Of a DNA stretch of 64,000 nucleotides, positions 25,331-25,939 are shown piece after piece. The position numbers and the translations under genes are program-made. The notes under the pieces are model-generated. The model was not told the origin of the DNA. It saw only the letters and a program-made list of their open reading frames with translations, and did no database searches. Each line of letters opens with the position of its first letter. Position 1 is the first letter of the stretch. Source of the stretch: Dehalococcoidia bacterium (GTDB taxonomy: Bacteria > Chloroflexota > Dehalococcoidia > SM23-28-2 > RBG-16-64-32). Location: positions 1,342,399 to 1,406,398 of the forward strand of contig OY762959.1 of NCBI GenBank assembly GCA_963667205.1, read 5' to 3'.

Positions 25331-25939
25331 CACGCTGCGCGCCCCTCTGACGTCTCCACATTCCCCTTCGATCGCGGCGAAGTTCGCCTCCCGATCAAAC
25401 CACGAGACATCGGGCCGCCCACCATCTTCATTCCCGACATACCGTCATATCCGCTCAGCGTGCCGATCGCGAGGCCGGGACTGGGGGAGAACTTCGAACT
25501 CCCCGGCTGGAGCGCCGAACGGAGTTTCTTCGCCTACAGCGCGAACCCTCACGACGCGCCGGGCTTCGGGCGCCCGGATTCCTCGATCCGAGCCGAGGAA
25601 CCTCAGCTGTCGTTCACGGTGCGCTTCGCTCGCGTCTCCATCAACCCGTTCGTGTCCCGCATGCTTCCCGTCGTTGTTGTTTCGATCCTGGTGTTTTCCC
25701 TCTTTCTCGTCGTCGTCCGCACTCGCACTCATCCCGAAGACTTCCCAATCTCTACAGGAATCACCTCGCTTTCGTTCCTCAGCGCCATGTTGTTCGTGCT
25801 CATCCTTGGCCACAACAGCCCCCCCCCCCCCCCCCCCCCCCCCCTCCCCCCCCCCCCCCCCCCCCCCCCCCCCCCCCCCCCCCCCACGCTCATCTACCTT
25901 GAGTTCTTCTACATCATCATGTACGCTATTGTTGGGTAA
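25328..25939 (+). CDS. Hypothetical membrane protein segment containing a polyproline tract encoded by the poly-C run
   Basis: The frame-2 ORF has two TM helices, then (P)8-L-(P)13 encoded purely by CCC codons, then a C-terminal hydrophobic tail LIYLEFFYIIMYAIVG. It may be the frameshifted C-terminus of the sensor. Confidence 0.3.
   Translation, partial: RHAARPSDVSTFPFDRGEVRLPIKPRDIGPPTIFIPDIPSYPLSVPIARPGLGENFELPGWSAERSFFAYSANPHDAPGFGRPDSSIRAEEPQLSFTVRFARVSINPFVSRMLPVVVVSILVFSLFLVVVRTRTHPEDFPISTGITSLSFLSAMLFVLILGHNSPPPPPPPPLPPPPPPPPPPPPPTLIYLEFFYIIMYAIVG
25819..25885 (+). repeat. Homopolymeric tract of 67 nt: C26-T-C40
   Basis: Read directly from the sequence. Confidence 0.95.

Follow-up and report, generated by a model that had tools for sequence, protein, structure and literature searches.

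A length-variable poly-C tract in a decayed sensor-channel gene of a Dehalococcoidia bacterium, probably a slippage-prone repeat free of selection

What does a run of 67 nucleotides, all but one of them cytosine, do inside an apparent membrane-protein reading frame of a bacterial chromosome: is it a switch, a part of a protein, an error of assembly or a by-product of gene decay? The window (the whole stretch of DNA analysed here, 64 kb) carries a single homopolymer longer than 8 nt, for which an earlier note had given coordinates and composition that proved to be exact:

25819 to 25885, plus strand: poly-C tract C26-T-C40 (window sequence; intact orthologue DNA; C8, C10 and C35 alleles in related contigs)

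The tract consists of C26 (25819-25844), a single T (25845) and C40 (25846-25885), contains no Ns, and reads G40-A-G26 on the minus strand. The next-longest run, which is also the only other one of at least 8 nt in the 64 kb, is a C8 at 12387-12394 (of equal length in L016, the one related contig checked for it). With a C content of ~32%, a run in which 66 of 67 positions are C has a chance probability of ~1e-33 per site, and the tract, well above chance length, is therefore not a product of chance; it is also the cause of a local spike in GC skew. In the frame of the channel domain (see below) the tract is translated as S-P8-L-P13-T with a hydrophobic segment on each side, as the earlier note had described, while in an alternative frame it removes the stops for an ORF (24285-26912, 875 aa) that, again as noticed before, enters the downstream binding-protein gene.

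The host gene and its decay

Among 5.8 billion proteins, 13 relatives of the conceptually joined open stretches were found, 11 of which are single uninterrupted proteins (694-861 aa, mostly 780-861 aa; identity 47-70%). Alignment with these 11 intact homologues, together with a tblastn search of one of them (P0001) against the window, resolved the window copy into four collinear pieces distributed over three frames:

23593 to 26016, plus strand: pseudogene of a dCache plus pLGIC-like membrane protein (tblastn, homologue alignment, dCache matches, pLGIC fold match)
23593 to 24282, plus strand: pseudogene piece 1, frame 1 (tblastn of P0001)
24283 to 24290, plus strand: first frame change, FLPGV* / SPRGNWYQ (common to all related strains; no indel in comparison with L001-L003, L012 and L014)
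24291 to 25346, plus strand: pseudogene piece 2, frame 3 (tblastn of P0001)
25338 to 25346, plus strand: second frame change, GWSFSATL / PSDVSTFPFDRG (tblastn)
25343 to 25933, plus strand: pseudogene piece 3, frame 2 (tblastn of P0001)
25934 to 25941, plus strand: third frame change with a deletion of ~24 codons; TAA stop at 25937-25939 (alignment and tblastn)
25942 to 26013, plus strand: pseudogene piece 4, frame 1 (tblastn of P0001); stop at 26014-26016

The second of these frame changes, at which one tblastn match ends (25346) and the next begins in a different frame (25343), is the one that had been suspected near 25330. The ~24 residues absent from the window copy correspond to residues 764-787 of intact P0001 (i.e. 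the second half of M3 and the M3-M4 loop). P0008, a protein called on related contigs, crosses the second frame change in the wrong frame; it comes from near-identical genomes, in which this same pseudogene was translated out of frame. In one related strain (L014) the terminal TAA of the pseudogene, at the window-equivalent position 25937, has become CAA, a further sign of unconstrained drift at its 3' end.

At the site of the tract the intact relatives carry a nearly invariant HNS-LRSALNPS-TLIYLE, located between M2 and M3, and the orthologue DNA at this site is itself C-rich (AGC CTC CGC TCA GCC CTC AAC CCG TCC ACG). In the window the 24 nt for the M2-M3 loop (LRSALNPS) are swapped for the C run, so that M2 and M3 directly flank the tract; the tract was seen in none of the 11 intact homologues.

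As the fragments of the window gave only a weak Pfam signal for dCache (E 0.02), the family was identified through its intact homologues. The dCache_1 model matched 11 of 12 family members (best E 7.7e-10) and the profile search matched PDB 3lib (a sensor kinase dCache) at E 9.4e-9, which places the N-terminal half of the host gene within dCache_1. For the C-terminal half, the AF2 model of P0001 (a monomer, mean pLDDT 61) predicts strands in 504-677 followed by helices at 682-706, 716-743, 746-775 and 794-810, that is, a beta-sandwich with four TM helices. All 50 of the 50 PDB matches listed by Foldseek for this model are GABA-A, GluCl, GLIC or glycine receptor chains (best E among the matches listed 3e-11; TM-scores low, 0.31-0.42), and a profile search against the PDB reached GLIC chains at marginal E-values (0.05-0.1); the Pfam model Neur_chan matched neither the window fragments nor the family members. 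These matches, together with the predicted fold, show that the ancestral gene encoded a pLGIC-like channel with a dCache sensor fused to it. The family (dCache, helical hairpin and pLGIC-like channel, the channel half being without a Pfam model) is rare, with the 13 hits among 5.8 billion proteins, and appears to be uncharacterised. A scan of a genome-contig collection recovered only a Gemmatimonadota homologue, and a scan of JGI metagenomes only relatives at <=71% identity, the window being present in neither.

The decay is not confined to the channel gene, as two neighbouring genes on the same strand illustrate:

22119 to 23526, plus strand: PAS/LuxR-type (GerE) regulator, split at ~22958 (comparison with the 612-aa orthologue in L017)
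26025 to 26912, plus strand: family-3 solute-binding lipoprotein (SBP) gene, intact, 295 aa (Pfam SBP_bac_3, E 1.6e-28)

Beside the intact homologue P0006 the order is PAS/LuxR regulator, channel gene and family-3 SBP, with the SBP gene starting 9 nt past the channel gene, and L017 (5001-8515) carries a host-family locus with the regulator upstream and SBP_bac_3 downstream; in such intact relatives the SBP and channel genes are probably co-transcribed. In the window, ORF 22119-22958 covers residues 25-301 of the 612-aa regulator of L017, the next ORF resumes at residue 302, and one PAS unit of the orthologue is absent, by which the regulator too appears to be pseudogenised and the three-gene module to be decaying. 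All strains compared have an intact SBP gene, which is a separate 295-aa call on the related contigs, the in-frame fusion upstream through the tract being found only in the window. Furthermore, a more distant relative (L019 1-1849, ENA ERZ23498356 scaffold_405624; 82% nucleotide identity) retains only the window-equivalent 24739-25411 of the channel gene, after which its sequence resumes at the C-terminal end of the SBP gene, the channel membrane domain and most of the SBP gene being deleted. This lineage has independently lost a large part of the same module by deletion and, given the decay in the window species, the module is therefore being lost repeatedly within the group.

The locus in related strains

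By using P0008 and two variants of the downstream binding protein, we recovered the locus in five further contigs, which represent three further strains (a literature search with their run and analysis accessions found no publications). Tract lengths were as follows:

L001 (ENA ERZ25074053, 189 kb): C8
L002/L013 (Logan ERR14231558, 20.5 kb): C8
L003/L015 (Logan ERR14231557, 8.5 kb): C8
L012 (ENA ERZ28669063, 2.66 Mb): C10
L014 (ENA ERZ28763718, 4.57 Mb): C35
Window: C26-T-C40 (67 nt)

The five contigs are collinear with the window at 99.6-99.8% identity over 8-21 kb and have all of the frame changes in common with it; across the four strains the tract is the sole indel within the pseudogene, and no further indels occur over 8.9 kb. 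Close genomes thus differ in tract length (C8, C10, C35, 67 nt) between conserved flanks, which bears out the suggestion of the earlier note that the tract is hypermutable: one site carries four lengths in four strains. Controls behaved differently, as all four other runs of at least 6 nt in the 21.6-kb overlap with L001 keep their length, and the C8 at 12387 is unaltered in the Logan contig L016. Logan contigs are, we assume, assembled from exact read k-mers, in which case the C8 allele of the tract would occur in the reads of two separate runs.

A split of the strains into (window, L012) and (L013, L014) is favoured by 15 sites, with 0 conflicting. Placed on this tree, the tract lengths read (67,10)|(8,35), each clade containing a short and a long allele, and therefore at least two large independent length changes took place within ~0.3% divergence. 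The alleles of 10 and 67 nt keep M2 and M3 in frame, and those of 8 and 35 nt put them out of frame. A rescue of the gene by the two in-frame alleles was considered and discarded, the upstream frame changes and the truncated M3 persisting in all alleles. Judged by its reading frames, the channel gene is inactive however long the tract, no allele restoring the frame.

The strain comparison also brought out a concentration of substitutions close to the tract:

25931 to 26028, no strand: SNP cluster, 10 variable sites among four strains in ~100 nt (strain comparison)

This cluster sits 46-143 nt downstream of the last base of the tract (background ~5 variable sites per kb; 0 variable sites in the 373 nt upstream) and overlaps the deletion junction of the pseudogene as well as the short spacer before the binding-protein gene. 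It could be due to relaxed constraint or to local mutagenesis near the G/C run. In L001 (6x) a 1-nt deletion at the window-equivalent 27215 splits a GMC oxidoreductase gene; it is probably an assembly error, since the Logan contigs of runs ERR14231557/8 do not show it. The 90%-identity clusters with this neighbouring oxidoreductase among their members bear labels of Chloroflexota/Dehalococcoidia MAGs, a hint at the organism.

Origin of the tract

On these observations we consider it likely that the tract is a real, very long and slippage-prone mononucleotide repeat which arose in an already dead gene, and that it is unconstrained because its host gene was dead. We envisage that a deletion or substitutions would first have left a run of ~8 C at the site of the M2-M3 loop; the rate of slippage would then rise with the length of the run and, with no selection acting on the dead gene, repeated free expansion and contraction could follow, each change in length arising by slipped-strand mispairing during replication or repair. 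The decay of the regulator and the deletion of most of the module in a more distant lineage support such a neutral reading. The phase-variable tracts described in bacteria are several times shorter than 35-67 nt, and the long alleles (35 and 67) are taken from assembly consensus, so these lengths are to be treated with caution. According to a review, the longest perfect repeats mutate fastest, and short tandem repeats (STRs) are generally scarce in prokaryotes (PMC9990875).

The sources of error deserve particular weight, as the earlier note had leaned towards an artefact or a degenerate locus. Its half concerning degeneration has been borne out, with three frame changes and a deletion present in every related strain; its half concerning poly-G read tails from two-colour Illumina chemistry, or a chimeric contig join, is extremely improbable. 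A poly-G/C run is the typical form of such a read-tail artefact and the GC skew spikes at the tract, but the flanks belong to a single gene and stand in the order expected of it (M2, tract, M3), five other contigs, representing three further independent assemblies, match them collinearly over 8-21 kb and carry a C run at the same position, and the proteins of the window lie on a contig of 2.5 Mb, which speaks for a long-read assembly. Another route to error would be that the true tract is ~C8-C10 in all strains and that C35 and C26-T-C40 stem from read errors or from window-wise polishing of homopolymers. The names of related ENA contigs (e.g. 'ctg467519_6x_l') look like those of metaMDBG long-read assemblies, which we take them to be. 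This assembler homopolymer-compresses the reads and then polishes in 500-nt windows (PMC11392814), base space being rebuilt with SPOA, and the length of the long runs and the single T may therefore be miscalled; the odd T could be a consensus seam, and indel errors do occur in such contigs (the 27215 deletion of L001). Against this stand the long runs themselves, found in two independent assemblies exactly where others carry C8 or C10, the other homopolymers compared, which are identical between assemblies, and the 8.9 kb free of further indels in four strains. Moreover, we know of no process that would inflate 8 bases to 35 or 67. We therefore regard a short true tract in all strains as unlikely; the exact length of 67 nt and the single T, having assembly consensus as their source, are not reliable.

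If the run is real, it might still serve a purpose. Its length could control the expression of the downstream SBP gene (through read-through, coupling or transcription over a G-rich template) or toggle a residual channel product, and several features fit this: 139 nt separate the end of the tract from the SBP start codon, an upstream ORF of the window continues in frame into the SBP gene, which is intact in all strains, and in the intact relatives the SBP gene, 9 nt past the channel gene, is probably co-transcribed with it. We nevertheless judge such a function quite improbable, as the ORF that would be fused upstream is an out-of-frame pseudogene fragment, the lengths (8-67 nt) are unlike the small stepwise changes of known switches, neither promoter-like nor terminator-like sites were found around the tract, and Rfam matches were absent from 20000-30000. 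Nor does the contingency locus contemplated by the earlier note agree with a channel gene that is dead whatever the tract length: the tract does not interrupt an otherwise intact gene, three further frame changes and the 24-codon deletion being present in all strains, and no length restores an intact frame. Almost no weight can be given to the tract as a genuine polyproline linker of a functional membrane protein, or as a programmed ribosomal frameshift site. The 67-nt allele does hold M2 and M3 in frame with a single codon, but one length in three would keep the frame by chance, and two of the four alleles break it; the N-terminal 580 residues are not in the frame of this ORF, which stops in a truncated M3; and the intact homologues have an invariant 8-residue loop at the position of the polyproline. 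Programmed frameshifting, also raised in the note, fails in addition on the 11 homologues, which are single uninterrupted ORFs free of the tract. What had been read as a membrane-protein ORF with a polyproline is thus a pseudogene fragment and not a protein feature, and the best reading is that the polyproline is never made within a working protein and that the 875-aa fused ORF is a functionless by-product.

A bolder form of the slippage-prone repeat in a dead gene may also be entertained. If the runs of 35-67 nt are real in vivo, the lineage would tolerate a runaway, recurrent expansion and contraction of a G/C repeat far beyond the lengths known from bacterial chromosomes, which would be a sign of poor mismatch repair or of an unusual mode of replication, and the tract would be a local fragile or mutagenic site that explains the downstream SNP cluster and might modulate the SBP gene. 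We hold this extension to be rather doubtful.

Significance and comparison with known systems

Neither the polyproline 'membrane protein' nor the 875-aa fused ORF ought to be annotated as a gene, and the locus is better recorded as a pseudogene that contains a homopolymer of variable length. For quality control of assemblies, it exemplifies an extreme poly-C/G run in a contig that is not a short-read artefact and whose exact length is nevertheless not to be trusted. We consider that the interest of the locus lies mainly in this caveat and in its extreme repeat instability. Should reads confirm lengths of 35-67 nt, the locus would illustrate from nature how long a mononucleotide repeat can become in a bacterium once selection is lifted, and would help to study how slippage and mismatch repair behave in a lineage that is uncultured. 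The host family, in which a dCache domain is fused to a pLGIC-like channel and accompanied by a conserved regulator and a binding-protein partner, is of interest in its own right as a rare and apparently uncharacterised one.

Prokaryotic pLGICs such as DeCLIC, according to published work (PMC9897478), carry an accessory periplasmic domain N-terminal of the channel. The family described here resembles these proteins (and the core fold of GLIC and ELIC) in its predicted beta-sandwich followed by four helices and in the N-terminal placement of its accessory domain; it differs in that this domain is a dCache on its own helix plus a helical hairpin, in the lack of a Neur_chan match and, for the window copy, in being a pseudogene.

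With long-read homopolymer errors the tract has in common that the differences between assemblies are limited to one homopolymer and that the inferred type of assembler treats homopolymers specially. Such errors, however, typically amount to ~1-2 nt rather than 27-59 added nucleotides, whereas here the other runs are identical and the C8 is also present in two Logan contigs from separate runs. With neutral microsatellites that expand in pseudogenes or non-coding DNA (mononucleotide repeats of eukaryotes, length heteroplasmy of poly-C/G in organelles) the tract shares a long, perfect and selection-free run and a mutation rate rising with length (PMC9990875), with the difference that it resides in a bacterial chromosome, where STRs are scarce (PMC9990875), and in a window where runs of at least 8 nt are nearly absent. 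The poly-G/C contingency tracts of Campylobacter, Neisseria, Haemophilus, Helicobacter, Bordetella and the Treponema tpr genes are alike in that their length varies between very close strains while the flanks are conserved, slipped-strand mispairing being presumed in both cases. In host-adapted bacteria such tracts are usually ~7-20 nt long, gain or lose a single base or a few at a time, and are located in intact genes or promoters whose ON/OFF state they set. The tract of the window, in contrast, belongs to a series of 8-67 nt that changes in large steps, in a host gene that is dead at every length.
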